The notes: generated by a model from the letters alone, not told the origin. Counted from the stretch's first letter, positions 7,987 through 47,219 are shown. The stretch: DNA of 64,000 nucleotides from a candidate division WOR-3 bacterium (GCA_965649105.1 CBFGJP010000001.1:14464-78463); one strand, 5' to 3'. Program-made: numbers and translations.

Positions 7987-9264
7987 TTATACGATCTCTC
8001 CAATCGGTGTTCTGCCTTTTATTTTGGTGATGAGGACATTATGGATAGCACCGGGTTTTATCTCCTTTTCTACAATCACATCCTTGTTTCCCCTATTCTT
8101 TCCCCGAGTGCCATTTTCTGTTTTCTCTTCAAATAGGACCTCATAGACCCGACCCAGCATCTGTCCGGTCTTCTTGATGATTATCTCATTTTGAGTATTG
8201 ATGAGAATTTGTAGACGTTTTTTTATAACTTCTTCCGGAAGGGATGGATATTCGCTTGCCCGGGTCCCGGGTCGGACTGAATAGCGATACATATATGCAT
8301 CGTCAAATTCAATCTTTTTTACCAGCTCAATCGTCTCATAGAATTCTTCTTCAGTTTCCGTCGGAAATCCAACGATGATATCGGTCGTGATTGTAGCATC
8401 AGGAAGATTCTCCCTTATTTTTTTAATGATTCTTAAATAATCTTCTTTTGTATATTTTCTATTCATCAACTTTAAGATTCTATTGTTTCCTGATTGTAGA
8501 GGCAGGTGAAACCACTCACAGATATTTTTATTCTCTTTTATCACTTTTATTATTTCATCATCAAAATCTTTGGGATGTGAAGTTAGAAATCTTAACCTGA
8601 ATATGTTTGTTTTCTGGGCAACGAGTTTCAAGAGTTCAGGGAATTTTATTCCATCATAATAATATTCATTTACATTCTGACCGAGAAGTGTTATATCTTT
8701 TACACCGGCTTCAACAAGATGGTTTACTTCTTTAATAATATCTTCAACCGGCCTGGAGCGCAATCTTCCCCGCACAAAGGGGACGATACAATATGAGCAA
8801 TAATTATCGCAGCCGCGGGTTATGGAGACGAAATCGGAAATCTTTTTTGATTTCCTGCATATACCGGCATATAATTCTTTGCCAACTTCGGTCTCAATAA
8901 TCTTGGTCTTTTGATTTGTCAGAACTTTTATATATGCAGGAATTTTTTGGTATGAATCAGGGCCGAGGACAAGGTCAACAAATGGATATCGGGTGATAAT
9001 CTCATCAGCAAGCCTTTTTGCCATACAGCCGACTATGCCGAGAACAATGCCTTTTTCCTCGCGCCATTTTTTTAATGTTGAGATATAACCAAGTGCCCGC
9101 TGTTCAGCGTGTTCCCGGACTGAGCAGGTATTAATGAAGACCATATCCGCTTCGGCAATACTTTCTGCCGGCATACAATTTTCTTCAATAAGAATCTCCT
9201 GTATAATATCCGAGTCATTCTTATTCATCTGGCAGCCAAATGTCTTGATATAGAATTTATACAT
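7987..9264 (-). CDS. miaB: tRNA-2-methylthio-N6-dimethylallyladenosine synthase (radical SAM methylthiotransferase)
   Basis: N-terminal FGCQMNKNDSD (MiaB signature). Radical SAM CSYCIVPFVRG. C-terminal TRAM domain. Confidence 0.8.
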   Translation of the reverse strand: MYKFYIKTFGCQMNKNDSDIIQEILIEENCMPAESIAEADMVFINTCSVREHAEQRALGYISTLKKWREEKGIVLGIVGCMAKRLADEIITRYPFVDLVLGPDSYQKIPAYIKVLTNQKTKIIETEVGKELYAGICRKSKKISDFVSITRGCDNYCSYCIVPFVRGRLRSRPVEDIIKEVNHLVEAGVKDITLLGQNVNEYYYDGIKFPELLKLVAQKTNIFRLRFLTSHPKDFDDEIIKVIKENKNICEWFHLPLQSGNNRILKLMNRKYTKEDYLRIIKKIRENLPDATITTDIIVGFPTETEEEFYETIELVKKIEFDDAYMYRYSVRPGTRASEYPSLPEEVIKKRLQILINTQNEIIIKKTGQMLGRVYEVLFEEKTENGTRGKNRGNKDVIVEKEIKPGAIHNVLITKIKGRTPIGEIV

Positions 9265-10419
9265 TTACTCTACTATAATGCCAAATGTTTCGGTCTCTGT
9301 CACATCGGTGATTTCAACGGTCTTCAACTCTCTCTCCATACAGGTTTGGCTGATATTAACCCTTATGTAATTATCGGTCAAACCTTTAATCGTCCCTCTT
9401 TTCTTTTCAATGATAACACCAATCTTTTTACCCATAAGTGTCTGCCGGAATTTATAATTTTTTTCAATGATAAATTTTTTAAGCATCCAGAATCTTTTTT
9501 TCTTTTCTGCGAGATTCACCGGGTCACCAAATTCATAAGCCTTGGTTATATTTCTTGGTGAATAAGTAAAAATATGAAGGTGAGTTATGGGTGAATTGGT
9601 GATTAGATCATAGGTGTTTTTGAATTCTATTTCTTTCTCTCCAGGGAAACCAACGATGACATCCGCTCCGATTGCAACATCAGAAAAATTTTTTGTAAGA
9701 AGTTCAAAGATATTCTTAAGATGATTAGAATCATACTGGCGCCCCATTAGAGATAGAATTCTATCATCCCCGCTCTGGATGGGAATATGAAAATGTCTGC
9801 AAACGGGCAAATCCTTAAGACAGGAGAGCAATTCTCTGTTTATGAAATTCGGTTCAAGAGAGGACAATCTTAACCGCGGCAGGTTTGGTGAATTTGCTAA
9901 TCCTTTAAAAAGCTCCATTAACGAAGCACCGATATCCATACCATAAAGCCCGATATTTGCACCAACCAGCACAATTTCATTAAAACCCAGGCTCTTTGCC
10001 CATTCAATCTCTTTTTTGATTAAATCTATAGATTTACTTATGATTTTTTTTCGCAACTTTGACACTACACAGAATGTGCAAGGTTGATTGCAACCGTCCT
10101 CAATCTTTAAAAAATAGCGGGATTTTTTTGGTGCCGGGTATATACCTTCAATAATCTTGTTCCGTTCTTCGTTATCAATCTTTTCATACCCTGCAAAGAG
10201 TTCGGGTTTAAATTGTACCAGACATCCGGTTATAATTATCTTTTTATCTGAGAAATCCCGCTGTGCCTGTCTGAATTTTTTCAGGGATTTTACTTCTGCC
10301 TCATGGGTAACACAACAGGTATTGACAATGACAACATCGTCATCTTTGTGATATTTTTCGGAGAGACAATAGCCTTCGTATTGATTCAGTTTGCAACCGA
10401 CATTGAATAGAATTGCCAA
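9265..10419 (-). CDS. mtaB: MtaB-like tRNA methylthiotransferase (radical SAM MTTase paralog)
   Basis: N-terminal VGCKLNQYE (MtaB-type signature). Radical SAM CTFCVVSKLRK. TRAM-like C-terminus. Directly abuts miaB. Confidence 0.65.
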   Translation of the reverse strand: MAILFNVGCKLNQYEGYCLSEKYHKDDDVVIVNTCCVTHEAEVKSLKKFRQAQRDFSDKKIIITGCLVQFKPELFAGYEKIDNEERNKIIEGIYPAPKKSRYFLKIEDGCNQPCTFCVVSKLRKKIISKSIDLIKKEIEWAKSLGFNEIVLVGANIGLYGMDIGASLMELFKGLANSPNLPRLRLSSLEPNFINRELLSCLKDLPVCRHFHIPIQSGDDRILSLMGRQYDSNHLKNIFELLTKNFSDVAIGADVIVGFPGEKEIEFKNTYDLITNSPITHLHIFTYSPRNITKAYEFGDPVNLAEKKKRFWMLKKFIIEKNYKFRQTLMGKKIGVIIEKKRGTIKGLTDNYIRVNISQTCMERELKTVEITDVTETETFGIIVE

Positions 10420-12174: not shown

Positions 12175-14310
12175 TTACACTTTGTCAATCCGTAATGAGA
12201 GTTGAAATAATCCGAGACCCACGATAAAATTCAGGATTATAAATAAAACAGAAGTATATAATATCCCAAGTATTGGGATGAAAATCAAGGCAGTAATCAA
12301 TGCCCCGAAACTTGCGCCCAAAAGATCAATCCCATAAAGGATACCCGACTTTTTTTCAAAAAATATGTCTATTACCAATGGGAAATGTAAACCATTTAAA
12401 AATCCCCCGGCTAATAAAAGAATGGCAATGATATAATTTATAAACTCCACCTTCGTAAAAGTACAAATAAAAATTATTAAAAAATAAATGCCTATGGTTA
12501 TTTGAATAGTCGATAAAAAGTTCAGCTTTTTCTGAAGGGTATCTATTTTTCTAAATATTCTCATCTTAATAAAAAACAAAGTTCCCATTGCAAGTCCCAG
12601 CATGAATAAACCTATAATAATACCTATCCAGTTATAAACATATCCATAAAATACTTGAAAGAGAATCAAAAGTACTATCTCAGATGAAATGCCTGCGACA
12701 CCGGTGGTAAATATTGAGAGATAAATAAGCGTTTTGCGATACCAGCAGAAAAGAATGGGAATCAATATTAATAAAAATAAACCCGGATGCATATTGAAGA
12801 GTTTTAAAAATAATTTTTTAACAAATCCTGAAGAAATACTACCCCATAGTAGCACATTGAAATAATAACATACAGGCTTTAAATCGTTGTTAATATAAGA
12901 CTTCGTTCTTTCGATACACTGCTTTATATATCCAATTTTTTCCTCAGTAAGATTGTAATCAAAAAAATAGTTATTTACGTAAAGAAGATTAAGATTTCTG
13001 TCCCTGATATTTTTCTTCAAAATTTCTCTAATTCCAACTTCAATTTCGTAGTCCAGTCCAATATATGTGGCTTTTGATAACGGTAATACATAAACTTTTT
13101 TGAAAACCCTTTCCAATGTATTCTTGATTGTGCCTAAAAATTGGCTATAAATCGGGCTGAAAATATCCGGTGTATAATTGACTCTAATACAGAATATCCC
13201 ACCCTGATTAAGCCTGCCTTTAGATTCCTGGAAGAATTCTAATGTATAATATCTATTAAGATTTGCATTTACCGGATCAGGCAGATTAATAATAATACAA
13301 TCAAATTTTTCTTTGGTATTTTTGATATAGTATCGACCATCGCCGATAATTACATTTAATCTATTATCAAAAATTTGAGAACCAATAAATTTTTTTGAGA
13401 TTTCAATAATCTTGGGATCGAGTTCCAGATAATTCAATTTCTGAATCGATGGATGTTTGAAAATCTCTTGTATGCCACCACCCAAACCACCGCCAATAAG
13501 CAGAACACTTTCAGGATTCTTGTGGATTAACAGCGGATAATGAACCGCCTCTTCCGAGGCATAAAAATCAGGGTACGCAAAGTCAAAAACGCCGTTTGAA
13601 TAAAAGTTGATCTGATCATCCGATTTTGTTAATGTGATATTTCCGTATTTTGATTCAAAGACACCAATAATATTTTGCCCCGGCATCTGCACTTTTTTTA
13701 ACTTAAACTCTATCGAGTTTATAGCCAGAAATAAAAATAAGGGAAGCACGGACAATAACAGGTAAATCTTTTTTCTAATACATAAATAACTGGCGAATAT
13801 TAATAACGAAATGAGCAAAATAAAGATACCCGATGGGGGGATGAAAGATAATAAAACGAAGGATAATATAATACCACCAAAAACAGCACCAAAACTTTCA
13901 AAAAAATACACCCTTTGTGGTCTTATAATTTCAGTAGCAGCAGGAAATAGGGCACCAAAGATGATACAGAGTGGACAAAGCGTAATAAACGCAATAATTA
14001 TTATCTTGTATAAATCAATAACCTCACCAAAGTTTATAGAGAAGATCGCAGGGGCATTCCTTATGAATATAAAAGAGCATACCAAAAACAGTGCGGTTAA
14101 AAAAATAAGATTTGCATAATTTCGCGCCGGGTTATCTCTTAAATTCAATTTTGAATATATGAAACTTCCCAACCCGGTCAACAAAAGCCAGAGAAATAGC
14201 ACAATACCTGAAATCAATTCATTGCCCGAAAAAAATGCGAGCATTTCGCGGATGATCATTGTTTGACTCATAACTGCCGCCATACCCGATATAAAAATTG
14301 CAATGTGCAC
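12175..14310 (-). CDS. fused polytopic-membrane / spermidine-synthase-like (polyamine aminopropyltransferase family) protein
   Basis: 711 aa. Multiple TM helices at both ends. Central PABS-like domain (LLIGGGLGGGIQEI...LELDPKII...GDGRYYI...DCIIINLPDP). Confidence 0.6.
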   Translation of the reverse strand: MHIAIFISGMAAVMSQTMIIREMLAFFSGNELISGIVLFLWLLLTGLGSFIYSKLNLRDNPARNYANLIFLTALFLVCSFIFIRNAPAIFSINFGEVIDLYKIIIIAFITLCPLCIIFGALFPAATEIIRPQRVYFFESFGAVFGGIILSFVLLSFIPPSGIFILLISLLIFASYLCIRKKIYLLLSVLPLFLFLAINSIEFKLKKVQMPGQNIIGVFESKYGNITLTKSDDQINFYSNGVFDFAYPDFYASEEAVHYPLLIHKNPESVLLIGGGLGGGIQEIFKHPSIQKLNYLELDPKIIEISKKFIGSQIFDNRLNVIIGDGRYYIKNTKEKFDCIIINLPDPVNANLNRYYTLEFFQESKGRLNQGGIFCIRVNYTPDIFSPIYSQFLGTIKNTLERVFKKVYVLPLSKATYIGLDYEIEVGIREILKKNIRDRNLNLLYVNNYFFDYNLTEEKIGYIKQCIERTKSYINNDLKPVCYYFNVLLWGSISSGFVKKLFLKLFNMHPGLFLLILIPILFCWYRKTLIYLSIFTTGVAGISSEIVLLILFQVFYGYVYNWIGIIIGLFMLGLAMGTLFFIKMRIFRKIDTLQKKLNFLSTIQITIGIYFLIIFICTFTKVEFINYIIAILLLAGGFLNGLHFPLVIDIFFEKKSGILYGIDLLGASFGALITALIFIPILGILYTSVLFIILNFIVGLGLFQLSLRIDKV

Positions 14311-14399: not shown

Positions 14400-14666
14400 A
14401 TGAAAAAAATTTATATTTTTGGTCGACAAACCTGTCAGGTTTGTAAGGATACCTATGAGAAATTTTGTTATTTTAAAGAAAAAAAGGGGTTTAAGGCACC
14501 GATTGAATATATTGATATGGATACGGTTGATGGTATGGCAGAGGGTGCATTTTATGAAGTCGCTGACATTCCAACAATTATTATATTTGAAAACGATCAA
14601 GAAATTGTGCGTTGGTCAAAAAAACCACCGGTCAGTGAAGAATTTCTACCGTATTTGTTAAAATAA
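14400..14666 (+). CDS. glutaredoxin/thioredoxin-fold protein (CxxC)
   Basis: 88 aa. CQVC redox motif near N-terminus. NrdH/glutaredoxin-like size. Confidence 0.5.
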   Translation: MKKIYIFGRQTCQVCKDTYEKFCYFKEKKGFKAPIEYIDMDTVDGMAEGAFYEVADIPTIIIFENDQEIVRWSKKPPVSEEFLPYLLK

Positions 14667-14685: not shown

Positions 14686-15489
14686 ATGGAAGAAATTCTC
14701 CAAGCAAAGCAGAAAAAGATTGAAAAGTTAAAAGAAATTTTAAAGAAATTTCCGGGCGTGGTAGTTGCCTTCTCTGGTGGTGTTGACTCAACATTTCTTT
14801 TAAAAATGGCGGTAGAAATATTTAAGGACCAAGTTATTGCAGTAACCGCCACTTCACCTCTTTATCCTGAAGCCGAAATCAAGCAGGCAAGAAAGATTGC
14901 AAAACTATTGAATGTTAAACATATCATCATCGGCTCAAATGAACTTATGAATAAGTATTTTAAAAATAATCCGGTCAATCGTTGCTTTCATTGCAAGGTT
15001 GGATTGTTTAAAAAATTAAAAAAAATTGCACAAAAATGTGGATTTATTGTTGTTGAGGCAAGTAATTATTCTGATCTCAATGATTTCAGACCCGGGCTAA
15101 AGGCAGTAAGAAAACTTGGTATCAAATCGCCATTGATAGAAGCGCGCTTGACAAAAGATGAAATAAGATATTTTGCCAGAATGTTTAAATTGCCGAACTG
15201 GAACAAACCTTCAATGGCTTGCCTTGCCTCAAGAATCCCTTACGGTGTAAAAATAAATAAAAAAATTCTAAAACGCATTGAGCGAGCGGAAGCATTTTTA
15301 AAAAAACTAAAGTTTTCTCAATGCCGGGTACGGGACTACTTTCCGATTGCCCGGATCGAAATCCTACCCAATGAATTTTCCCGAATACTTAAGGATAGAA
15401 CACAAATTATTAGATTTTTCAAAAGAATCGGCTACAAATATATTACACTCGATTTGGATGGCTATAAAACCGGCAGTATGAATTTATGA
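14686..15489 (+). CDS. larE: LarE-type PP-loop ATP pyrophosphatase (sulfur transferase of nickel-pincer cofactor biosynthesis)
   Basis: PP-loop AFSGGVDS. LarE-like blocks YRPGLKA, NWNK, CLASRIPYG (Cys at the sacrificial-Cys position) and YITLDLDGYKTGSMN (cf. YVTLDLGGFRSGRMN). Extra CxxC (NRCFHCK). Confidence 0.7.
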   Translation: MEEILQAKQKKIEKLKEILKKFPGVVVAFSGGVDSTFLLKMAVEIFKDQVIAVTATSPLYPEAEIKQARKIAKLLNVKHIIIGSNELMNKYFKNNPVNRCFHCKVGLFKKLKKIAQKCGFIVVEASNYSDLNDFRPGLKAVRKLGIKSPLIEARLTKDEIRYFARMFKLPNWNKPSMACLASRIPYGVKINKKILKRIERAEAFLKKLKFSQCRVRDYFPIARIEILPNEFSRILKDRTQIIRFFKRIGYKYITLDLDGYKTGSMNL

Positions 15490-16574
15490 ACTCCTTGAAA
15501 ACCATAGCCAAGACATTTTTCAAAATCGGACTCCTTGGTTTTGGTGGTGGTCCCGGGATGCTTGCGCTATTAAGGTCTGAATGTGTTAGAAAAAAGAAAC
15601 TCATCTGTGATGACGAATTAACAACCGCGGTCGCCATCGGACAGATGCTTCCCGGTCCATTTGTCCCTAATTATTGTGAATATATCGGATATTGTCTTTC
15701 GGGTTTGAAGGGTGCGATTGTAGCGGGAATTTCTTTGCTCCTCCCATCTTTTATTATTATGCTTATTCTCTCTTATCTCTATTTTGCCTTCCACACACTT
15801 CCGGCAATCAATCAAATATTCAAGGGCGTTGGCGCTGTAATGACAGCAATAATTCTCTGGTCCGGAATTGATATGGGACGGTTGATAATTAACAAGGTCA
15901 ACCGGGTTATTATATTTATTTTTGCCTTTATCCTTTTTCTAATTAGATTTGATCCGGTACTCGTCGTGCTTTTTGCGGGTGGTTTGAATATAATACTTGA
16001 GCATATCAAATCCCCAAAAATTTTTCTTTCCGTACCGATTTTTTTATTTGATATTAAAAAGGCATTTGAATTATTCGGTATCTTTTTAAAAATCGGCGCA
16101 GTGATCTTTGGTGGGGGTTATGCGGCTATTCCATTTATTCAGAATGAAGTTTGCATTTACCGTGACTGGCTTACAACAAGAGAATTCTTTGATGGCTTTG
16201 CACTCGGACAAATAACACCCGGACCGGTGGCGATCACGGCAACTTTCGTTGGCTTCAAAGTCATGGGAATCTTCGGTGCATTGATTTCTACAATTGGAAT
16301 CTTTCTACCATCATTTCTCATGCTCATCATATTAATAAAAATTTACAAAATAATTGAGCAAAACTGTTATGTCCAATCGTTTCTAAATGGAATAAAATCC
16401 GCGGTCGTTGCCGTCTTGCTATCTACCGGGGTTATATTCATTCCGATGCATTGGTTTAATATAGCATATGGATTCTTTGGTATTTTATGCTTGATTATTT
16501 TAGTCACCGTAAAAAAATTAGACCCTTTTATACTCGTCGTTACCGGCATTATCTTTGGGATAATAAAAGGATAG
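15486..16574 (+). CDS. chrA: ChrA-family (chromate ion transporter, CHR) two-domain membrane protein
   Basis: 362 aa. Two CHR repeats, each with GxxxFGGG signature (KIGLLGFGGGPGM and LKIGAVIFGGGYAAIP). Start overlaps larE stop. Confidence 0.65.
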   Translation: MNSLKTIAKTFFKIGLLGFGGGPGMLALLRSECVRKKKLICDDELTTAVAIGQMLPGPFVPNYCEYIGYCLSGLKGAIVAGISLLLPSFIIMLILSYLYFAFHTLPAINQIFKGVGAVMTAIILWSGIDMGRLIINKVNRVIIFIFAFILFLIRFDPVLVVLFAGGLNIILEHIKSPKIFLSVPIFLFDIKKAFELFGIFLKIGAVIFGGGYAAIPFIQNEVCIYRDWLTTREFFDGFALGQITPGPVAITATFVGFKVMGIFGALISTIGIFLPSFLMLIILIKIYKIIEQNCYVQSFLNGIKSAVVAVLLSTGVIFIPMHWFNIAYGFFGILCLIILVTVKKLDPFILVVTGIIFGIIKG

Positions 16575-16593
16575 ATATCCAAACTGCTCCTGG

Positions 16594-16621
16594 ACTTGAC
16601 TTTTATTGTATTTTAACTAAA
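16594..16621 (+). promoter_or_regulatory. promoter TTGACT-N16-TAAAAT upstream of bioY-like gene
   Basis: TTGACT 16594..16599, TAAAAT 16616..16621, then GGAGG RBS and ATG 16639. Confidence 0.55.
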
Positions 16622-16638
16622 ATATTTCAGGAGGTGCA

Positions 16639-17220
16639 ATGAATATCACTAAGACAATTGATTTGTTCAATTATGGAAAAATATTATATTTTGAGTGGTT
16701 AAAAGAGTTACATTGGATCAAAAAATTAGGTCTATCTTTGTTATTTGCTTTGGCTACGGGAATCTTTGCACAAATTAGAATACCGCTCGGATTCACACCG
16801 GTTCCCGTAACGGGACAGGTATTTGTAGTGTTGTTAAGCGGGGTGTTTCTGGGTGGATTTTATGCGGGTATGAGTATGATTTTTTATATAACTCTTGGGG
16901 CAATTGGAATTCCATGGTTCGCGGGATTTCGTGCTGGATTAAATCCTGGTTACACTCTGGGTTATCTTTTAGGATTTATTCCTGCTGCAATCTTTATTGG
17001 ACTGTTTGTTCATAGACATAAAGGTTTTTTCAACCAAATTTTGATAATGATGTTTGGTGTATCAGTAATCTATTTTGTTGGTGCCCTTAATTTTGCCTTT
17101 CTACTCCGGACAAATTTTTTAATAACAATGAAATTGGCTGTCTTACCATTTATACCATTTGATATTATAAAGGCATTGGTCGCTGGGGTTTTATCGCGGG
17201 TGATCATTCCTAATGATTGA
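16639..17220 (+). CDS. bioY: BioY-family S-component membrane transporter
   Basis: 193 aa. TPVPVTGQVF signature (BioY PVP(I/V)T.Q). 5-6 TM helices. Confidence 0.65.
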   Translation: MNITKTIDLFNYGKILYFEWLKELHWIKKLGLSLLFALATGIFAQIRIPLGFTPVPVTGQVFVVLLSGVFLGGFYAGMSMIFYITLGAIGIPWFAGFRAGLNPGYTLGYLLGFIPAAIFIGLFVHRHKGFFNQILIMMFGVSVIYFVGALNFAFLLRTNFLITMKLAVLPFIPFDIIKALVAGVLSRVIIPND

Positions 17221-17235
17221 AGTTTTGATTGCTAT

Positions 17236-18690
17236 ATGTTTAAAATTATTACTAAAATTTTTCTGACAGGAGTTTTAATTATGACACAGAACTGTAATGG
17301 TGGAGAGTATCGCGAATCAATCCATGCTGGCTCCTGGTATCCGGGCAGGGAAAAAGACCTTCAAGAGGTGATAAAGACCTATCTCAAAAATGCCCGAACA
17401 AAGATTTCGGGTGAAATATACGGACTTGTTTCACCTCATGCCGGTTATATGTATTCAGGACCATTTGCAGCATTCTCATATAAACTATTGGAAAATAAAG
17501 AATTTGATGATGTGATAGTAATAGGTCCGAGTCACCGGTATGGATTTTATGGCGTTTCTGTTGATAAAATGGCGGGCAGGAAGACGCCTTTAGGCAAGGT
17601 AGATTTTGATACAGACCTTGCGGATAAAATAATCAAGCAAAACTCAAAGATTATAAAATACGAACCGATGGCACACATTGAAGAGCATTCTGTTGAAATA
17701 CAGATACCATTCCTCCAGATGGTTTTGAAGAAATTCAAACTTATTGAGATTGTTATGGGATCTCATGATTATAAAACCTGTGGTGTACTTGCTGATGCCA
17801 TTGTAAATGCAGCAAAAGATAAGAAATTTTTAATCATTGCGAGTTCCGACCTATCCCATTATCATAATCAGGAGACCGCGGAAAAACTTGATAATCTTGT
17901 GATTGATGCTATAGAAAAATTTGACCCGGAACTTTTATATAAAAGGCTCTCTTCGGACAGTTGCGAGGCATGTGGAGGTGCACCGATAATCACTGCAATG
18001 CTCGTAGTGAAGAAATTAGGTGCAGACAAGGCAAAGGTTTTGATTTATGGAACGAGTGGAAATATCACCGGTGATTATGCTCAGGTCGTTGGTTATCTTT
18101 CAGCAGTTTTTTTTAAGGGAAATGAGCAGAAACATGAAAAAGTTGGGGTTGATCTTGGTTTTAATGAAGAAGAAAAGAAGGTATTAAAGGATATCGCAAG
18201 AAAGACTATCGAAGCGGTGGTTCAAGGTAAAAAAGTTCCTGAGTTTAAAGATGTACCTGAAAAACTGAAAGAACCCTATGGTGTATTTGTGACGCTTACC
18301 AAACACGGAAATTTAAGAGGATGTATCGGTCATATCATTGCGGATGAGCCCCTTTATAAAACATGTGCTGAGATGGCAAAAGCTGCCGCACTCCACGACC
18401 CGCGGTTCAATCCTGTAAATGAAAAAGAACTTCCCGAGATCGAGATTGAGATCTCCGTTCTTACTCCGATGGAGAAAGTTAAGGATTTCAATGATATTGT
18501 TATTGGCAGAGATGGATTGTTTGTTCGTAGAGGCTATTATAGTGGCCTGCTTTTACCCCAGGTGGCAACTGAGTATGGGTGGACTGTTGAGGAATTTTTA
18601 GAACAGACCTGTATGAAGGCCGGGCTTCCCGAAGATGCTTACAAATTGAAGGATACCGAGGTTTATAAATTCTCAGCCCAGATATTTTAG
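17236..18690 (+). CDS. fusion protein: Memo1-like (AmmeMemoRadiSam system protein B) N-terminal domain + AMMECR1 (system protein A) C-terminal domain
   Basis: N-terminal domain has AGSWYPG and VSPHAGYMYSG motifs of the MEMO1/extradiol-dioxygenase-like family. C-terminal about 180 aa has AMMECR1 hallmarks (GVFVTLTKHGNLRGCIGHI ... LLPQVA). Confidence 0.65.
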   Translation: MFKIITKIFLTGVLIMTQNCNGGEYRESIHAGSWYPGREKDLQEVIKTYLKNARTKISGEIYGLVSPHAGYMYSGPFAAFSYKLLENKEFDDVIVIGPSHRYGFYGVSVDKMAGRKTPLGKVDFDTDLADKIIKQNSKIIKYEPMAHIEEHSVEIQIPFLQMVLKKFKLIEIVMGSHDYKTCGVLADAIVNAAKDKKFLIIASSDLSHYHNQETAEKLDNLVIDAIEKFDPELLYKRLSSDSCEACGGAPIITAMLVVKKLGADKAKVLIYGTSGNITGDYAQVVGYLSAVFFKGNEQKHEKVGVDLGFNEEEKKVLKDIARKTIEAVVQGKKVPEFKDVPEKLKEPYGVFVTLTKHGNLRGCIGHIIADEPLYKTCAEMAKAAALHDPRFNPVNEKELPEIEIEISVLTPMEKVKDFNDIVIGRDGLFVRRGYYSGLLLPQVATEYGWTVEEFLEQTCMKAGLPEDAYKLKDTEVYKFSAQIF

Positions 18691-18704
18691 TTAGGAGCGA
18701 TAAC

Positions 18705-19376
18705 ATTAAAAAAAGATTTAGCAAAACAATAAGCGACATCGGGTTTGCAAAATTAGATCTGCACCGAAAAAATAGAAAAGGATTTCCCGAGGTCATCTTA
18801 TGCCAAGGTAAGTCAGAAGAGCAAATAGTGCAATGTGCGTGGCAGATATTTAAAGCCAATAAAAAAGTGCTTTTGACGAGAATTAATCCATCCATTGCCC
18901 GATCGCTTGATAATGAATTTAAATCAGGCAAATATTATTCTGAAGCCAGATTGTATTTTATTGGTAAACAAAAGGAAAAAACAGGTCTGGTAGTTGTAAT
19001 ATCTGCAGGTACCGGAGATATCCCGGTGGCTGAAGAAGCCGCGGTCACCGCTGAAATTATGGGGAGTAATGTTAAAAGAATATATGATGTTGGTGTAGCT
19101 GGGTTGCACAGGCTCTTAAAATTCAAAAACCTGATAAAAAAAGCGCGGGCCCTTGTGGTTGTGGCAGGCATGGACGGTGTTCTTCCCTCAGTTGTTGGTG
19201 GTTTATTCCCGGCACCGGTAATTGCGGTGCCCACAAGCATTGGATATGGGGCGCATTTCAATGGCATTGCATCTTTATTGACAATGTTGAATTCCTGTGC
19301 GCCGGGTGTAGCAGTGGTTAATATTGATAATGGTTTTGGAGCGGGTTATCTTGCGGCAATTATAAATAGTCTATGA
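18705..19376 (+). CDS. larB: LarB (pyridinium-3,5-biscarboxylic acid mononucleotide synthase, PurE-like); start codon uncertain
   Basis: PurE-like core (VVVISAGTGDIPVAEEAAVTAEIMG ... VVAGMDGVLPSVVGG ... VPTSIGYG). LarB-specific N-terminal block GFAKLDLHRKNRKGFPEVI is encoded in frame upstream of the first ATG (18828). No ATG/GTG/TTG between the in-frame stop at 18666 and 18828. AGGAG at 18693 is followed 7 nt later by ATT at 18705. Confidence 0.6.
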   Translation: MKKRFSKTISDIGFAKLDLHRKNRKGFPEVILCQGKSEEQIVQCAWQIFKANKKVLLTRINPSIARSLDNEFKSGKYYSEARLYFIGKQKEKTGLVVVISAGTGDIPVAEEAAVTAEIMGSNVKRIYDVGVAGLHRLLKFKNLIKKARALVVVAGMDGVLPSVVGGLFPAPVIAVPTSIGYGAHFNGIASLLTMLNSCAPGVAVVNIDNGFGAGYLAAIINSL

Positions 19377-20032
19377 TTGTCTTTGATAAAGTCACAAAGA
19401 TTTTCCAGCGAGACTGGGTCGCACTTGACAGCATTTCTTTTGAAATCCAGAAAGGCGAGTTTGTTTTTATTACTGGTCCGACCGGTGCAGGAAAAAGTAC
19501 GGTCCTCAAACTAATCTACAAAGACGAAGAACCAACCAAAGGAACAATTAAAGTTCTTGATTACCATCTTCATTTTTTAAAACGGAATAAATTACCCGAA
19601 TTCCGTCGTAAGATCGGCGTTATTTTTCAGGACTTCAAACTTCTTCAGGACCGGACGGTCGAAGAAAATGTTGCATTTGCCCTGGAGGTCACTGATATTC
19701 CACCCCGGGATTTAAAGAAAAAAGTGTTTGATATTTTAACCTATGTAAAATTAAGTCATAAAAAATTTAATTATCCTTATCAACTTTCTGGTGGCGAGCA
19801 GCAAAAGATCGCAATTGCCCGCGCATTAGTGCGTGATCCCTACATACTGCTTGCCGATGAGCCCACCGGAAATCTGGATTTGAAAAGTTCCCAGGAAGTT
19901 CTTGAAATTCTGCTGGACATCAACTATAAAGGCACCACCGTTCTGATGGCAACACATAATCAATTACTCGTCCGCAAGGCAAAAAAACGTATCATCCATC
20001 TGGAAAATGGAAAAATCGTGTCGGATAAATGA
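19373..20032 (+). CDS. ftsE: cell division ATP-binding protein FtsE
   Basis: Walker A GPTGAGKST, ABC signature LSGGEQQK, Walker B LLADEPTGNLD. ATGA overlap with larB stop. Confidence 0.8.
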   Translation: MIVFDKVTKIFQRDWVALDSISFEIQKGEFVFITGPTGAGKSTVLKLIYKDEEPTKGTIKVLDYHLHFLKRNKLPEFRRKIGVIFQDFKLLQDRTVEENVAFALEVTDIPPRDLKKKVFDILTYVKLSHKKFNYPYQLSGGEQQKIAIARALVRDPYILLADEPTGNLDLKSSQEVLEILLDINYKGTTVLMATHNQLLVRKAKKRIIHLENGKIVSDK

Positions 20033-20044
20033 GAAAGGATTAAT

Positions 20045-20893
20045 ATGGCATTGCGCATTGGCATAAGAGAGGGTTTGAGAACGATAATCAGAAGTCGTTC
20101 TTTATTCATTCTTTCGTTACTTGTCGCCGCGATATCTTTTTATTTGCTATCAATTTTCGGATTGGTAACGGTCAATCTTTATGAAATTGCAAACCTTCTT
20201 GATGAAAAGATTGAAATCATTGCATTCCTTGAAGAACGTGCAGATATCGCTTGGTTAAAAAACAGCATAAACAAGATTAACGGTGTTCAAGAAGTGGTTT
20301 ATGTATCAGCCGAAACCGCATTAAAACAACTGCAGGACGAAGTTGCTGAAACAAAAGAGATAATCCGCATATTTGAAGATAACCCATTACCTGCATCGAT
20401 AAGAATTAAACTCGAGCCTCAATATCGTAATCCAAAAGGATTAGAAGAAATAAGCAAGAAAGTTTTGTTGCTCAAGGGTGTGAAAGATACAATATACGGT
20501 GGAGAACTTGTAGAGCAACTAAAAAAGATAACTAATATTATGCTATTCTTCGATGTCGGCTTATTGATCATCATTACTCTTTCCGTCATATTTGTCATAT
20601 TTCAGACCATTAAACTAACAATCTTTGCCCATGCTACCGAGATTGAAATAATGAAACTCGTTGGTGCAACAGATATATTTATCACCATACCATTTGTGTT
20701 TCAGGGATTGGTCCAGGGTATATTAGGTGGAATCATTGCCTTTATACTGCTTGAAATAACCGTCCGGATTGCATCATCATTTTTCAACATTCCTTTCTTT
20801 CCCAAACTCTTATTCTTTCTGGGCAGCATATTATTCGGAGTGGTATTTGGTATAATAGGTTCAAGTATTGCATTGAGAAGGTTTTTAAAATGA
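20045..20893 (+). CDS. ftsX: cell division permease-like protein FtsX
   Basis: 282 aa. N-terminal TM, periplasmic domain, three C-terminal TMs. Follows ftsE. Confidence 0.75.
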   Translation: MALRIGIREGLRTIIRSRSLFILSLLVAAISFYLLSIFGLVTVNLYEIANLLDEKIEIIAFLEERADIAWLKNSINKINGVQEVVYVSAETALKQLQDEVAETKEIIRIFEDNPLPASIRIKLEPQYRNPKGLEEISKKVLLLKGVKDTIYGGELVEQLKKITNIMLFFDVGLLIIITLSVIFVIFQTIKLTIFAHATEIEIMKLVGATDIFITIPFVFQGLVQGILGGIIAFILLEITVRIASSFFNIPFFPKLLFFLGSILFGVVFGIIGSSIALRRFLK

Positions 20894-22002
20894 CATCCTT
20901 TTTAATATTTTTATGTTTATTTTTACAATTAAATCAAAAACAGAAAGAGCTTGATGACTTAAAGAAACGATTAAGTGAAGTAAGACAGGAAATTAAACAA
21001 CTTGAAAAGGAAAAATCAGGTGCCCTTGCTCGGCTCGAAAAGATAGATGAGGCCATAAATCTTTCCTCAGAGTATATCGAAAAAGTGACTACCCAGGAAT
21101 ACGAAGAAAAGATGCGAGTCTCAGAATTAAATCGTGAAATTGCACGTTTAGAATCAAAAATGAAATTTCAAAAAGAGGAATTGAAAGAAAGATTAATCCG
21201 TCTTTATAAATGGACTCCCTTTTATAAACTGGAGATTTTATTATCATCAAAGTCAATACCTGAGATACTATCAACCTCCTATTACTTACAGATTCTTGCG
21301 AAGCACGACAGCAAATTGTTCTTTGAATTTAAAGATTACTGGACAAAATATCTTGCTGATAAAAAAATGCGTGAGCAACTTATTTCGTTATTAGAAACCC
21401 GGCGGCAAGAAAAGGAACAGGAACTTGAGCAGTTAAATAAAGAAAGGCAGGAAAAAAGAAAAATCCTTGATGAAATAGCAAAACAGGAAAATGAGAAAAA
21501 AAAGATTGAGAAAGAATTGAAAAGTGCACAGCGCAAATTGGAAGATTTGATCGTCTCGCTTCGCAAAAAGAAAGAAAAAGAAGAAGCAAGTGCCAAGAGT
21601 TATTTTGAAATAAACAAAGGTAAATTACCCTGGCCCTGCAGAGGTTCGGTTGGGACAAAATTCGGGAAGGTCATTCATCCAAAGTACAATACAACGACAA
21701 AAAATAATGGAATTGATATATTGAGCAATTATGGAGAAAATGTTTATGCAGTTGCCCAGGGCAAAGTTGTTTATGCGGGGAAATTTATGGGATATGGTGA
21801 CTTGGTTGTAATTGACCACCAGGATGGATTTTATTCACTTTACGGGCATCTTTCCGAGATCCTTGTTAAGGTCGGAGACGAAGTGCCTTTAGGAAGAATA
21901 ATTGGTAGAGTAGGAGAAAGTGGTTCGTTGTCAGGTCCAATGCTACATTTTGAATTAAGAAAAGAAGGCAAACCAGTTGATCCCCTGGTATATCTGGAAT
22001 AG
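20890..22002 (+). CDS. envC: EnvC-like murein hydrolase activator (coiled-coil + degenerate LytM/M23 domain)
   Basis: Long coiled-coil region. C-terminal M23 fold where the Zn-ligand motifs are degenerate (NGIDIL instead of HxGxD; MLHFE instead of HxH). ATGA overlap with ftsX. Confidence 0.65.
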   Translation: MTSFLIFLCLFLQLNQKQKELDDLKKRLSEVRQEIKQLEKEKSGALARLEKIDEAINLSSEYIEKVTTQEYEEKMRVSELNREIARLESKMKFQKEELKERLIRLYKWTPFYKLEILLSSKSIPEILSTSYYLQILAKHDSKLFFEFKDYWTKYLADKKMREQLISLLETRRQEKEQELEQLNKERQEKRKILDEIAKQENEKKKIEKELKSAQRKLEDLIVSLRKKKEKEEASAKSYFEINKGKLPWPCRGSVGTKFGKVIHPKYNTTTKNNGIDILSNYGENVYAVAQGKVVYAGKFMGYGDLVVIDHQDGFYSLYGHLSEILVKVGDEVPLGRIIGRVGESGSLSGPMLHFELRKEGKPVDPLVYLE

Positions 22003-22886: not shown

Positions 22887-25322
22887 ATGGGTATATATTT
22901 GGTTCTATTTTTCTTGTCTGGTTTTTCTGCTTTGATTTATGAGATTACCTGGACAAGATTACTCTTGCTTGCATTTGGTTCAACAACCTTAGCAAATGCC
23001 CTGGTCGTATCAGCATTTATGCTGGGACTTGGTCTTGGCGGATTATATTATGGTTCCTATGTCGATCGGGTCAACAATTCTAAGAAATTATTTTCATATC
23101 TGCAGTTAGGAATTGGCTTATCTTCCTTTTTATTACTGCTTCTCATTAATCAGTTACCAAATTTTTATAAAGGCATATCAAAAAATATACATTTAAACCC
23201 ATCAATTTCATCAACCATTATATTCATTTTAACCTTCGCAGTCTTATTTATTCCTACATTTTTAATGGGCGGGACATTTCCAGTAATTACAAAATGTTAT
23301 GTTCAGGATGAGAATAAAATCAAAAATGGAATAGGATTATTATACGGATTCAATACTTTCGGAGGTACGATTGGTGCATTATTAACCGGATTCTTTTTTA
23401 TCAGAACATTGGGGCTTTCTTCGACCCAGTTGATCGCAATTTTAATAAATTTAATAATCGGCATTTTGGTGTATCTTTTCATTGCAAAAATGTCAACGGA
23501 AAATAGAATTTCAAAAACTGTTCCCCAGGAATCAAAAAAAGATAATTTAAACAAAATAAAAAAATATATGCCACTCATTGCCGGGCTAACAGGGTTTGCT
23601 GGGCTTGCCTGTGAAATTTTATGGATTCGTGCATTATCAATATTCCTTATCAATTCCACCTACACCTTTACTATGATTATTATTGTCTTTCTGTCGGGAA
23701 TTTTTATCGGTAGTATTGTATTTACCAGATTATCAAAAAAATCAAATATCCATAATGTTTTTGCATTAGTGCAAATTCTGACAGGATTATATATCATAAC
23801 TGGCAGTTTATTTTTAAATAAACTACCAGCATTACTATTTTTGTTCTCTAGTATCTTTGAAATACCTACCCTTAGAATGTTCCTACCCGCATTACTTCTT
23901 TCTTGGGTTATAGTCTTTGTACCCGCAATATTTATGGGGATAAGTTTTCCGCTAATTTGTTCTCTATACGAACAGAAAATACCGAACCTTGGTAACTATC
24001 TGGGTAATATTTATTTTTTCAATACAATTGGCAGTGCACTTGGTTCGCTAATTGCTGGTGTGCTCTTAATCCAATATATCGGAGTCATAAGGGGATTGGT
24101 AACTGTTGCTTTTATAAATTTACTGATTGGTTTCTTTTTTACGCTTTCTTTGAAGAAAAAATTTGTATATATCATTATTTTTGTTTGGGCAATCGCCAGC
24201 TTTTTTTATTCAATGCAAAATAAATTAATACTTCCGCCTTCCCTTTACCAGTCACCGAGCAGACAACACCGTGTTTTATTTTATCAAGAAACATTGGATG
24301 GGACTATAATTGTGAGTGAAGACCGTTCCACGGGCATAAGGTCCTGCTATGTAAATAACAGTGCGGTAATCGGCACAACCTATGATGCATTGAAGGTTGT
24401 AAAAATGCTCGGGCATCTTCCGTTCATATTCAATCCTGATGCAAAAGAGATATTGGTCATTGGTTTTGGAATTGGTATAACAACTTCAGCAATTGCACGG
24501 TATAATGTGAACCAAATAGATTGTGTTGAAATTTGTCCGGGCTTGCGTACAGCAGCAAAATATTTTGCAAATTTTAATAACTATATTTTTAATAATCCCG
24601 TAGTAAATTTTATTAACGCTGATGGCAGGAATTTTTTGCTATTAACAAAAAAAAGATACGATATCATTTCCTGCGACCCAACACATCCTATATTGGGAAG
24701 CGGAAGTCTTTATACTAAAGAGTTTTTCATATTGTGCAGGGAGCATCTATCGGATAATGGAGCAGTCTGTCAATATCTGCCCCTTCATAAACTGAGCCCG
24801 GATCAATTTAAATCTTTGATAAAAACCTTCGCTGATGTCTTCCCGCATACTTCAATCTGGCTTGGTTATTCGCATGGTATCCTTGTGGGCACAAATCATT
24901 CCCAAAAGATAATCTTTGAATCATTAAAAAATTTAAACGATGACCTGCTCAAAGATCCATATCTTCTTGCCGTCTCATATCTTCTTGATACAGAGGCAAT
25001 TAGACATTTCACCTCGGGTGCAAAGATAAATACCGATAACCAACCCAGGTTAGAATTTTTTACTCCCTTAAGTTTGAGGAATGAAAACTGGGAGCATAAT
25101 ATAAAATCAGTAATGGAACACAGAATTAGTATTGATAAAATCGTTATTGGCATTGAGGATTTAGAAAAATTGCAACGATATTTGCAGGGACAGAAGTATT
25201 TTATTGAAGGGCTCATATATCAAAACCGAAGAGACCGACAGTCAATGATCGAGGCGTTTAAAAAATCATTGGCAGTAAATCAAGAAAATAACGAAATAAG
25301 GCTATTACTTCAATCGCAATAA
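22887..25322 (+). CDS. fused polytopic-membrane / spermidine-synthase-like protein with C-terminal TPR region (paralog of 12175..14310)
   Basis: 811 aa. About 12 TM helices in the N-terminal half. PABS-like domain (ILVIGFGIGITTSAIA...IDCVEICP...FINADGRNF...DIISCDPTHP). TPR-like C-terminus. Confidence 0.6.
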   Translation: MGIYLVLFFLSGFSALIYEITWTRLLLLAFGSTTLANALVVSAFMLGLGLGGLYYGSYVDRVNNSKKLFSYLQLGIGLSSFLLLLLINQLPNFYKGISKNIHLNPSISSTIIFILTFAVLFIPTFLMGGTFPVITKCYVQDENKIKNGIGLLYGFNTFGGTIGALLTGFFFIRTLGLSSTQLIAILINLIIGILVYLFIAKMSTENRISKTVPQESKKDNLNKIKKYMPLIAGLTGFAGLACEILWIRALSIFLINSTYTFTMIIIVFLSGIFIGSIVFTRLSKKSNIHNVFALVQILTGLYIITGSLFLNKLPALLFLFSSIFEIPTLRMFLPALLLSWVIVFVPAIFMGISFPLICSLYEQKIPNLGNYLGNIYFFNTIGSALGSLIAGVLLIQYIGVIRGLVTVAFINLLIGFFFTLSLKKKFVYIIIFVWAIASFFYSMQNKLILPPSLYQSPSRQHRVLFYQETLDGTIIVSEDRSTGIRSCYVNNSAVIGTTYDALKVVKMLGHLPFIFNPDAKEILVIGFGIGITTSAIARYNVNQIDCVEICPGLRTAAKYFANFNNYIFNNPVVNFINADGRNFLLLTKKRYDIISCDPTHPILGSGSLYTKEFFILCREHLSDNGAVCQYLPLHKLSPDQFKSLIKTFADVFPHTSIWLGYSHGILVGTNHSQKIIFESLKNLNDDLLKDPYLLAVSYLLDTEAIRHFTSGAKINTDNQPRLEFFTPLSLRNENWEHNIKSVMEHRISIDKIVIGIEDLEKLQRYLQGQKYFIEGLIYQNRRDRQSMIEAFKKSLAVNQENNEIRLLLQSQ

Positions 25323-45610: not shown

Positions 45611-45991
45611 ATGGACAATAAGTGTTTTGCCTGTGGTACTGATAATCCCATCGGATTACATCTCGATATTCGTGAAAATCCAAATGGAGTGTATGCAAAG
45701 ATAAAACTAAGCCCGATATATCAAGGTTATCAGCAGGTGATACATGGCGGCATTGTTTCAACGATTCTTGACGAAATGGCAGTTTGGGCATCGTTCAAAA
45801 AAGGCAAAAAGGCTGTTACTGCCGAACTGAATGTGCGGATAAAAAAACCAATGCTTTCAGATACAGAATATATTGCTATCGGACGGGTGATAAATACAAA
45901 GTATAATCTCGTAATTGCGCAGGCAGAGATAAAAGACTCAAATGAAAAGGTTATTGCCTGTGCCGATTTGAAATTGATAGAGATTGATTAA
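45611..45991 (+). CDS. hotdog-fold acyl-CoA thioesterase (PaaI/YbgC-like)
   Basis: QQVIHGGIVSTILDEMAVWA motif. Start chosen at internal Met after the LolA-like stop. Confidence 0.6.
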   Translation: MDNKCFACGTDNPIGLHLDIRENPNGVYAKIKLSPIYQGYQQVIHGGIVSTILDEMAVWASFKKGKKAVTAELNVRIKKPMLSDTEYIAIGRVINTKYNLVIAQAEIKDSNEKVIACADLKLIEID

Positions 45992-47219
45992 GGTATATTT
46001 CATTTCGCTGGGCTGTCCCAAGAACCTTGTTGATTCAGAAAAGATAATGGGAACTTTGGAAAAAAACGGCGTAACACTCGGCTCCAGTCTGCAGGAAAGC
46101 GATATTGTCATAATCAATACTTGTGGATTTATAAGACCTGCCTTGAAAGAAACTGAGAGGGAAGTGGAAAAGAGTTTAAGATTTAATAATAATAAAGAGG
46201 TTTATGTATACGGTTGTGCGGTCAATCGAGCACGTGATTTTTTATCTAAAAAGTTTCCTGGAGTCAAAACCTGGTATTATATAACTGAAAGAAAAAAGCT
46301 TATTAAAGATATCCTAAAAAAGGTTCCAAAAACTGACGCAAGATTGTTGACAACATCAGGTTATGCTTATCTCAAGATCGCCGATGGGTGCTCAAATCAT
46401 TGTTCATATTGTACAATTCCTATGATCAAAGGAGAATTTAAAAGTTTAAATTTTAACGACCTCATCAATGAAGCAGCAGCGCTAGCAAAACTGGGCATAA
46501 AAGAGTTGATCCTCATTGCTCAGGATACAGCACGGTATGGCTTGGACTTGTATAATAAAAAAATGATTGTGCCACTTATAAGAGAACTCTCAAGATTAAA
46601 AGGAATTGAATGGATAAGGTTGTTATATGCCCATCCCAGATCATTGACTGATGAATTAATATCCGAGATAAAAAATAATCCGAAAGTCTGTAAATATCTT
46701 GACCTTCCAATTCAACATATCAATGACCGAATTCTTAAATTGATGAATCGTTATATCACAAAAAAAGAAATTTTAAGATTGATAAAAAAATTAAAGGGCA
46801 TAACCCTGCGTACAACAGTAATCGTTGGTTTTCCAACGGAAACTGATGAAGAATTTGATGAACTTTTTGATTTCTTGCAAAAAGGCTACTTTGATTGGCT
46901 CGGTGTTTTTAAATATTATCAGGAAAAAGATACACCCGCTGGTCTGTTAAAACAACTTCCATCTTATGTTGTCAATAAAAGATTTAATAAATTGATAAAA
47001 CTTCAGCAGAGAGTAATAAAATATAAGAACAGGCAAAGAATAAATAAATCTTTCAGGGTTCTTGTTCATCAAAAAAACAAGTATTTTATTGGACATACCG
47101 ATTTTGCCGCACCTGATATTGATGGGCAGATAATAATCAGACACGAAAATGTAGAATTGGGTAAATTTTATTGTCTTAAAATAAAAGACGCAAAAGGGGC
47201 TGACCTTTATGCCTATTGA
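45984..47219 (+). CDS. rimO: ribosomal protein S12 methylthiotransferase
   Basis: N-terminal LGCPKNLVDSE (RimO signature). Radical SAM CSYCTIPMIKG. TRAM domain. Confidence 0.75.
   Translation: MIKVYFISLGCPKNLVDSEKIMGTLEKNGVTLGSSLQESDIVIINTCGFIRPALKETEREVEKSLRFNNNKEVYVYGCAVNRARDFLSKKFPGVKTWYYITERKKLIKDILKKVPKTDARLLTTSGYAYLKIADGCSNHCSYCTIPMIKGEFKSLNFNDLINEAAALAKLGIKELILIAQDTARYGLDLYNKKMIVPLIRELSRLKGIEWIRLLYAHPRSLTDELISEIKNNPKVCKYLDLPIQHINDRILKLMNRYITKKEILRLIKKLKGITLRTTVIVGFPTETDEEFDELFDFLQKGYFDWLGVFKYYQEKDTPAGLLKQLPSYVVNKRFNKLIKLQQRVIKYKNRQRINKSFRVLVHQKNKYFIGHTDFAAPDIDGQIIIRHENVELGKFYCLKIKDAKGADLYAY

Follow-up and report, generated by a model that had tools for sequence, protein, structure and literature searches.

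A Memo-AMMECR1 fusion gene beside larB in a candidate division WOR-3 bacterium

The Memo and AMMECR1 proteins are conserved from the Archaea to humans, and both have been linked to human disease. To our knowledge, no biochemical function has been assigned to either family. Their closest described setting is the three-gene AmmeMemoRadiSam system, which consists of protein A (AMMECR1; TIGR04335), protein B (Memo-like; TIGR04336), and a radical S-adenosylmethionine (SAM) enzyme (TIGR04337); these are the Memo-AMMECR1-radical SAM systems of Burroughs et al. 2019, as cited in PMC7159879. Here, we analyze a stretch of 64,000 nucleotides (nt) from a candidate division WOR-3 bacterium (GCA_965649105.1, CBFGJP010000001.1:14464-78463), referred to below as the window, in which one gene (17236..18690, plus strand) encodes proteins B and A as a single polypeptide of 484 amino acids (aa). 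Many B-A fusions have already been annotated, and this gene is probably one more ordinary case of that large family. The only new point is that, in WOR-3, it stands beside larB, a gene of nickel-pincer cofactor synthesis, in all informative loci, instead of beside the usual radical SAM partner.

A preliminary description of this DNA had reported the B and A domains in one 484-aa open reading frame (ORF), and this is borne out by full-length matches above the cut-offs in both Pfam and NCBIfam. The Memo domain, of the LigB superfamily (17320..18108, plus strand; aa 29-291), matches PF01875 with an E-value of 8.6e-67 and 225.6 bits against a cut-off of 27 (profile positions 3-269 of 269), and TIGR04336 with 282 bits against a cut-off of 26 (1-270 of 270). 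The AMMECR1 domain, which carries the LRGCIG motif (18193..18687, plus strand; aa 320-484), is detected in the C-terminal part by PF01871 with an E-value of 3.4e-60 and 202.8 bits against a cut-off of 25 (3-168 of 168), and by TIGR04335 with 193.4 bits against a cut-off of 99. Overall, the Memo (protein B) part extends over aa 26-292 and the AMMECR1 (protein A) part over aa 316-484. The motifs quoted earlier are all present, namely AGSWYPG (in HAGSWYPG, aa 30-37), VSPHAGYMYSG (aa 65-75), and GCIGHI (in RGCIGHI, aa 361-367). Between the two domains lies a linker of 28 residues (18109..18192, plus strand; aa 292-319) with a conserved VGVDLGF segment, in which V303, G304, L307, and G308 are invariant in the WOR-3 alignment. 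The window protein is therefore confirmed as a single-chain fusion of full-length Memo-like and AMMECR1 domains. Because the linker is in frame and conserved, and because the two domains share a single ORF in more than 100 homologues as well, a hidden frameshift between two genes, which had been raised as a possible flaw, is excluded.

The residues expected at both active sites are intact. In an alignment of 16 WOR-3 homologues, H68, H100, D205, H208, and C246 of the Memo metal site are invariant; we take these to be the equivalents of H49, H81, D189, H192, and C244 of human MEMO1. H68, H100, and C246 are also kept across all three context groups of fusions. On the AMMECR1 side, L360, R361, G362, C363, I364, and G365 are invariant in the alignments. 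In the sets of 16 and of 43 WOR-3 homologues, the catalytic residues do not vary, and most of them are kept in all three context groups. An AlphaFold2 model, built for a 469-aa form of the protein, has a mean predicted local distance difference test (pLDDT) score of 86.9, with low pLDDT at residues 283-286. Foldseek matches its AMMECR1 half to PH0010 (1vaj; template modeling (TM) score 0.83) and its Memo half to MEMO1 (7kq8 and 3bcz; TM scores 0.76-0.78), including the iron- and copper-bound forms of MEMO1; PH0010, MM0484, and ST0229 are the Protein Data Bank (PDB) homologues of the AMMECR1 half. No solved chain with both domains was present among the PDB homologues or Foldseek matches of the fusion. 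Modeling of the fusion interface, which had been proposed as a check, succeeded in part: both domains are well modeled, while the linker is of low confidence and the predicted TM score (pTM) is 0.65, which makes the interface itself unreliable.

The preliminary description had implied that both the fusion and the lack of an adjacent radical SAM gene were unusual, and neither impression survives the wider comparison. Among 5.8 billion proteins searched, 7,996 matched at E <= 1e-10, and in the best 120, which were examined and are 60-87% identical, both Pfam domains are present without exception. Many of these best matches bear the JGI name [quoted passage not shown], and those NCBI and UniRef entries among them that carry a name come from candidate division WOR-3. 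When 1.84 billion cluster representatives at 50% identity were searched exhaustively with HMMER, 3,401 proteins matched at E <= 1e-30; every one of the best 150, which were examined, is a two-domain protein, with lengths of 402-632 aa. The longer ones differ in longer linkers or leaders only, and no LarB or radical SAM domain fused to Memo-AMMECR1 was found among these 150. One of them (P0368) has the permuted order AMMECR1-Memo, and the domains have therefore been joined at least twice. The species-representative genomes that have a fused gene belong to WOR-3, Stahlbacteria, Desulfobacterota, Latescibacterota, Omnitrophota, and Neomarinimicrobiota, and further to Calditrichota, Acidobacteriota, Planctomycetia, Ignavibacteria, and Spirochaetes, a spread of more than ten phyla. 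In other words, the B-A fusion is already known, common, and automatically annotated.

Separate B and A genes, adjacent and in the same order, were found in 14 loci of Smithella, Syntrophaceae, and others (L043, L045, L047, L048, L050, L051, L053-L056, L061, L062, L066, and L080), with a TAA or TAG stop in the linker at query residues 293-300. At loci where the ORF caller had split the gene, tblastn joined both domains in one in-frame high-scoring segment pair, which had suggested selenocysteine insertion or readthrough; this was rejected, as the TAA/TAG stops in the linker mark true split genes. The linker is the place where the gene undergoes fission or fusion.

Gene neighborhoods were counted at 26 non-duplicate WOR-3/Stahlbacteria loci (59-89% identity) and at 59 loci from other phyla. 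In the latter, a radical SAM gene adjoins the fusion 18 times, 15 of them within 500 nt, and the three of these 18 genes that were scanned with profiles are all TIGR04337 (355-380 bits). Since the same fusion adjoins TIGR04337 in other phyla, it belongs to the described system, of which it is the covalent form of the A + B pair and no departure. Absence of an adjacent radical SAM gene is common (41/59 loci in other phyla and 26/26 in WOR-3), and no TIGR04337 gene lies within 10 kilobases (kb) of the fusion in any of the 26 WOR-3/Stahlbacteria loci. The preliminary description had noted the lack of an adjacent radical SAM partner, and the window has no TIGR04337 gene anywhere in its 64 kb, by motif scan and by tblastn with a verified TIGR04337 protein (best E-value 0.4). 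A homologue search seeded with the TIGR04337 protein of locus L025 gave Desulfobacterota proteins of at least 58% identity as its best 120 matches, a saturated result that says nothing on WOR-3.

The CX3CX2C motif of radical SAM proteins occurs in only three ORFs of the window, and these are methylthiotransferases, in agreement with the preliminary description: MiaB (7987-9264), an adjoining MtaB-like MiaB/RimO-family protein of 384 aa (9265-10419, minus strand), and RimO (45984-47219). The short MtaB-like protein scores above the MiaB/RimO subfamily cut-off only and falls below the equivalog cut-offs of MtaB, MiaB, and RimO. Pfam scans of the remaining window ORFs revealed no further radical SAM gene and no LarA, and they depict an ordinary diderm chromosomal region, with BamA, Skp, LolA, Lnt, ClpB, and GlnA.

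The most distinctive feature of the locus, which the preliminary description missed, is its conserved neighborhood of larB with larE or larC. In the window, larB (18705..19376, plus strand; 223 aa), which encodes the carboxylase/hydrolase of nicotinic acid adenine dinucleotide (NaAD) in nickel-pincer cofactor synthesis, starts 14 nt past the fusion stop and overlaps ftsE by 4 nt. Read from an ATT codon at 18705, LarB scores 284 bits with the NF033503 equivalog (cut-off, 175) and covers positions 1-208 of the 209 in that profile. Across WOR-3, 24 of the 26 loci have larB downstream of the fusion and within 400 nt of it, and the contig ends in the other two, so that the pairing holds in 24 of 24 informative loci. 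larC follows larB in 13 of the 26 loci and a BioY gene is adjacent upstream of the fusion in 15, and larE within 10 kb is confined to four, all of the window's own subclade (L001, L006, and L007). The closest relatives of the fusion, also from candidate division WOR-3 (87-89% identity; L001, L006, and L007), show full synteny, in the order glutaredoxin-like gene, larE, chrA, bioY, fusion, larB, ftsE, ftsX, and M23 peptidase gene. Over the WOR-3 loci as a whole, the outer flanks are scrambled: upstream of the fusion there is either BioY or DUF498/LpxC/LpxD, and downstream of larB there is ftsEX, or larC with a sigma factor, or unknown proteins of 632 aa and 929 aa. No Lar gene was found near the fusion in the 59 loci from other phyla, and the window has no LarC gene in its 64 kb and no LarA domain among the ORFs scanned with Pfam.

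Upstream of the fusion, in the same orientation, are larE (14686..15489, plus strand), which lies 1.75 kb away and whose product, the ATP-dependent sulfur transferase of the nickel-pincer pathway, scores 301.6 bits with TIGR00268 (cut-off, 150), a chromate-transporter-family (ChrA) membrane protein gene between larE and BioY (15486..16574, plus strand; TIGR00937, 235.8 bits), and the gene for a BioY-family membrane protein (16639..17220, plus strand; PF02632, 109.6 bits), which ends 15 nt before the ATG at 17236. All genes from 14686 to 22002 point in one direction; the gaps between them measure -4 to 64 nt, and there is no convincing terminator.

Some further observations concern these neighbors. 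A canonical start codon is missing near the true N-terminus of LarB; no ATG, GTG, or TTG occurs in frame before the GTG at 18828 (residue 42), and the shorter product truncates the LarB profile (242 bits, positions 31-208 only). An AGGAG sequence at 18693-18697 is followed, after 7 nt, by the ATT at 18705. This layout of a Shine-Dalgarno (SD) sequence and an ATT or ATA start is kept in L001 and L006-L009, and the more distant WOR-3 genomes use ATG. The arrangement suggests a conserved non-canonical (AUU/AUA) start, which possibly limits LarB translation. In some Stahlbacteria/WOR-3 genomes, the spacer between the fusion and larB is 200-318 nt long (L013:9669-9990, L015:3160-3362, L016:8019-8326, and L021:1247-1553) and contains a short AT-rich repeat-like sequence (aaatccgaat..ctaaatcctaaacaaat..); such a spacer may be a regulatory or mobile insert. 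The window's larE product has a CxxC pair (CFHC, about aa 100-103) and an ACLASR cysteine, which presumably resemble the iron-sulfur-cluster type of LarE and not the sacrificial type. The ORF that precedes larE (14400-14666) encodes a thioredoxin/glutaredoxin-like protein of 88 aa with a CQVC motif; it is conserved and recurs in L001, L006, and L007. The gene string is flanked by membrane proteins with spermidine-synthase-like domains, one of 711 aa (12175-14310, minus strand) and one of 811 aa (22887-25322, plus strand), the latter having a major facilitator superfamily region in its L001 orthologue.

The WOR-3 fusions also differ from the others in sequence. In the Memo domain, D110, R115, E171, and T273 are fixed in the WOR-3 clade, and the corresponding positions are conserved as Tyr, Tyr, Pro, and Asn in all other fusions. 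These substitutions are compatible with a changed substrate or partner.

The fusion could start at 17236 or at 17281. The ATG at 17281 (Met16) would give a protein of 469 aa, and most homologues are annotated from this position (465-469 aa). Met16 does not vary, a GGAG stands 8 nt before it, and the Gly codon is GGA in 20 of 21 loci. Met16 was nevertheless set aside as the first-choice start when an earlier start codon, 14-16 codons before Met16 and with K/R and a hydrophobic run after it, was found in most WOR-3 lineages, whatever the upstream gene; this codon is ATG in most of the lineages, is TTG or GTG in two, and is absent in L010 and L022. Because the upstream start codon and the hydrophobic leader are so widely conserved, 17236 is the likely start. 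Only 12 of 59 starts in the window use an SD sequence, and its lack at 17236 is therefore uninformative. Codon-position differences in the leader among four close relatives (18/13/15, with 13 synonymous and 26 non-synonymous codon changes) do not discriminate between the two starts.

From 17236, the protein would begin with a signal-peptide-like leader (aa 1-22; 17236..17301, plus strand), predicted from the alignments and consisting of MFK, a hydrophobic stretch, and then C20-N-G22. Cys20 does not vary, and position 22 holds only G, A, or S, which gives a C20-x-[G/A/S]22 pattern that fits the -3/-1 positions of a putative signal peptidase I site. A canonical lipoprotein lipobox at Cys20 was considered and rejected, the preceding residue being N, T, D, Q, K, G, or S. 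In other phyla, most fused relatives have hydrophobic leaders, seven of them with lipobox-like motifs, and the unfused B genes of Smithella are leaderless. The N-termini of the TIGR04337 partners in other phyla were examined at L024, L025, L039, L040, L052, L057, L074, L076, L077, L079, L084, and L085, and most have a twin-arginine motif (as in TRRELIKK, ERREFLKQ, and NRRSFLAT) and a hydrophobic N-terminus. The whole AmmeMemoRadiSam system in those phyla is thus predicted, from its N-termini, to lie outside the cytoplasm or to face the membrane, an odd place for a radical SAM enzyme.

The best-supported reading, which we consider probable, is that the fusion is an ordinary member of the B-A family. 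Behind a short leader that resembles a signal peptide, a single chain carries a Memo-type metal site (His/His/Asp/His/Cys; LigB/protocatechuate-dioxygenase superfamily) and an AMMECR1 LRGCIG cysteine site. The joined chain fixes a 1:1 ratio and would hold the two active sites together, so that they might act one after the other on a common substrate. Such a fusion would work beside the TIGR04337 radical SAM enzyme in other phyla; in WOR-3/Stahlbacteria, this enzyme is not linked and would be either encoded elsewhere or lost and dispensable, and the fusion stands in a [BioY]-fusion-larB(-larC) string, in which it is probably co-transcribed with larB. Within this reading, the domain identities, intact catalytic residues, breadth of the family, and gene order are observed, whereas joint action of the domains, co-transcription, export, and any functional tie to the Lar pathway are inferred. 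Several points weigh against this reading. The proposed mechanism is generic; the orientation of the domains in the model is unreliable, so the supposed juxtaposition of the two sites lacks support there; and the WOR-3 fusion, with its own fixed substitutions and its different neighbor, may have diverged in substrate or partner. One other explanation would remove the fusion altogether, namely a sequencing or assembly error that joined adjacent B and A genes. Split pairs in that order do exist in relatives such as Smithella and Syntrophaceae, but the continuous frame, the protein-level conservation of the linker, and the agreement of independent assemblies (NCBI, JGI, ENA, and Logan) on one ORF leave this exceedingly improbable.

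Two further explanations give the WOR-3 protein a special role, and they pull in opposite directions. According to one, which we consider rather unlikely, the leader is a true Sec signal, the fusion acts outside the cytoplasm on an envelope component (isoprenoid or lipid), and the Lar neighborhood is an inherited operon arrangement only. This would account for the conserved upstream start, K/R, hydrophobic run, and C20-x-[G/A/S]22 pattern, and it agrees with the leaders of fused relatives in other phyla, with the twin-arginine N-termini of TIGR04337 partners, and with the leaderless state of unfused B in Smithella; the neighbors are largely envelope-related (BioY, ChrA, FtsEX, and the M23 peptidase, with LpxC/LpxD in relatives), and Lnt and LolA are encoded in the genome. 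However, the invariant Met16 with GGAG at ideal spacing argues for a Met16 start and a leaderless cytoplasmic form, the hydrophobic core has only about nine residues, and there is no lipobox. Moreover, a radical SAM enzyme outside the cytoplasm would have neither SAM nor a reductant. An exported or membrane-tethered fusion would also argue against direct cooperation with the cytoplasmic Lar enzymes, which is what the other explanation, the main rival to the ordinary reading, proposes: in WOR-3/Stahlbacteria, the fusion would be uncoupled from the radical SAM enzyme and would work with LarB (and LarC/LarE) on a nicotinic-acid-derived (NaAD-derived) pyridinium nucleotide. Its role would be to make or modify a cofactor of the nickel-pincer type, or else it would be a new client enzyme to which that cofactor serves. 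We regard this as unlikely, even though the larB pairing in 24/24 informative loci persists at 59-89% identity despite differing outer flanks, 13 loci have larC after larB, and the window has larE in its gene string. The counts of neighboring TIGR04337 (0/26 in WOR-3 against 18/59 elsewhere), the clade-specific substitutions in the Memo domain, and the lack of a LarA-type enzyme among the window ORFs scanned point the same way. Burroughs and colleagues reportedly predicted, in 2019, that Memo systems modify nucleotide bases, and connected Memo with the modification of both nucleotide bases and isoprenoids, and Hausinger and colleagues are said to have observed many genomes with larBCE but without larA. 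On the other hand, the link is limited to one lineage, with no Lar gene in the 59 loci of other phyla, and no LarB-Memo or LarB-AMMECR1 fusion protein occurs in the best 150 representatives. In the window's subclade, larB is equally conserved beside ftsEX, a pairing that nobody would call functional; the spacer before larB reaches 200-318 nt in some genomes; and the signal-like leader suggests possible export. Within the searchable library of papers, none was found that links Memo or AMMECR1 with Lar or the nickel-pincer cofactor, and none on the fusion.

For the AmmeMemoRadiSam system itself, the ordinary B-A fusion of the window bears out the idea that A and B work as a unit, which hundreds of public fused, permuted, and adjacent pairs already imply. 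The pairing with larB says something else: it is phylum-wide and resistant to rearrangement in a group where a radical SAM gene is never linked, and it leads to a testable hypothesis, namely binding or conversion of NaAD-derived pyridinium nucleotides. It seems to us quite doubtful that LarB (with LarC/LarE) has in fact replaced the radical SAM enzyme as partner of the WOR-3/Stahlbacteria fusion, and that what the fusion acts on or uses is a pyridinium nucleotide derived from nicotinic acid and akin to the nickel-pincer cofactor. If true, it would provide the first concrete substrate clue for the Memo and AMMECR1 families, and possibly a non-LarA client or an extra maturation factor of the Lar pathway. 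Should complete WOR-3 genomes lack both TIGR04337 and LarA, the Lar hypothesis would be considerably stronger; should both be present, the pairing would be ordinary synteny.

Compared with the three-gene AmmeMemoRadiSam system (TIGR04335, TIGR04336, and TIGR04337), the window has A and B at full length with conserved active-site residues, but as one polypeptide, with no TIGR04337 in 64 kb and with larB as the neighbor. With the Lar nickel-pincer pathway, in which LarB, LarC, and LarE serve LarA racemases, it shares larB and larE at the equivalog level, and larC is adjacent in 13 relatives; the window itself lacks LarC, no LarA is present among the scanned ORFs, and no description of Memo-AMMECR1 in this pathway was found. 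The solved structures of human MEMO1 (3bcz, 7kq8, and 7l5c) and of archaeal AMMECR1 proteins (PH0010, 1vaj; MM0484, 1zq7; ST0229, 1wsc) match the model halves in fold, and their metal-site and LRGCIG residues are retained, whereas they are separate single-domain chains, and the identity of the window protein to MEMO1 is about 21%. The closest counterparts are the fused B/A proteins of WOR-3 and other bacteria (for example, P0004 in GCA_039802105.1 and P0086 in CP070686.1), which have the same domain order, length, linker, leader, and larB neighbor at 60-89% identity. From these, the window protein shows no material difference, and its sequence is new, the best database match being 87% identical and the best genome locus 89% identical.

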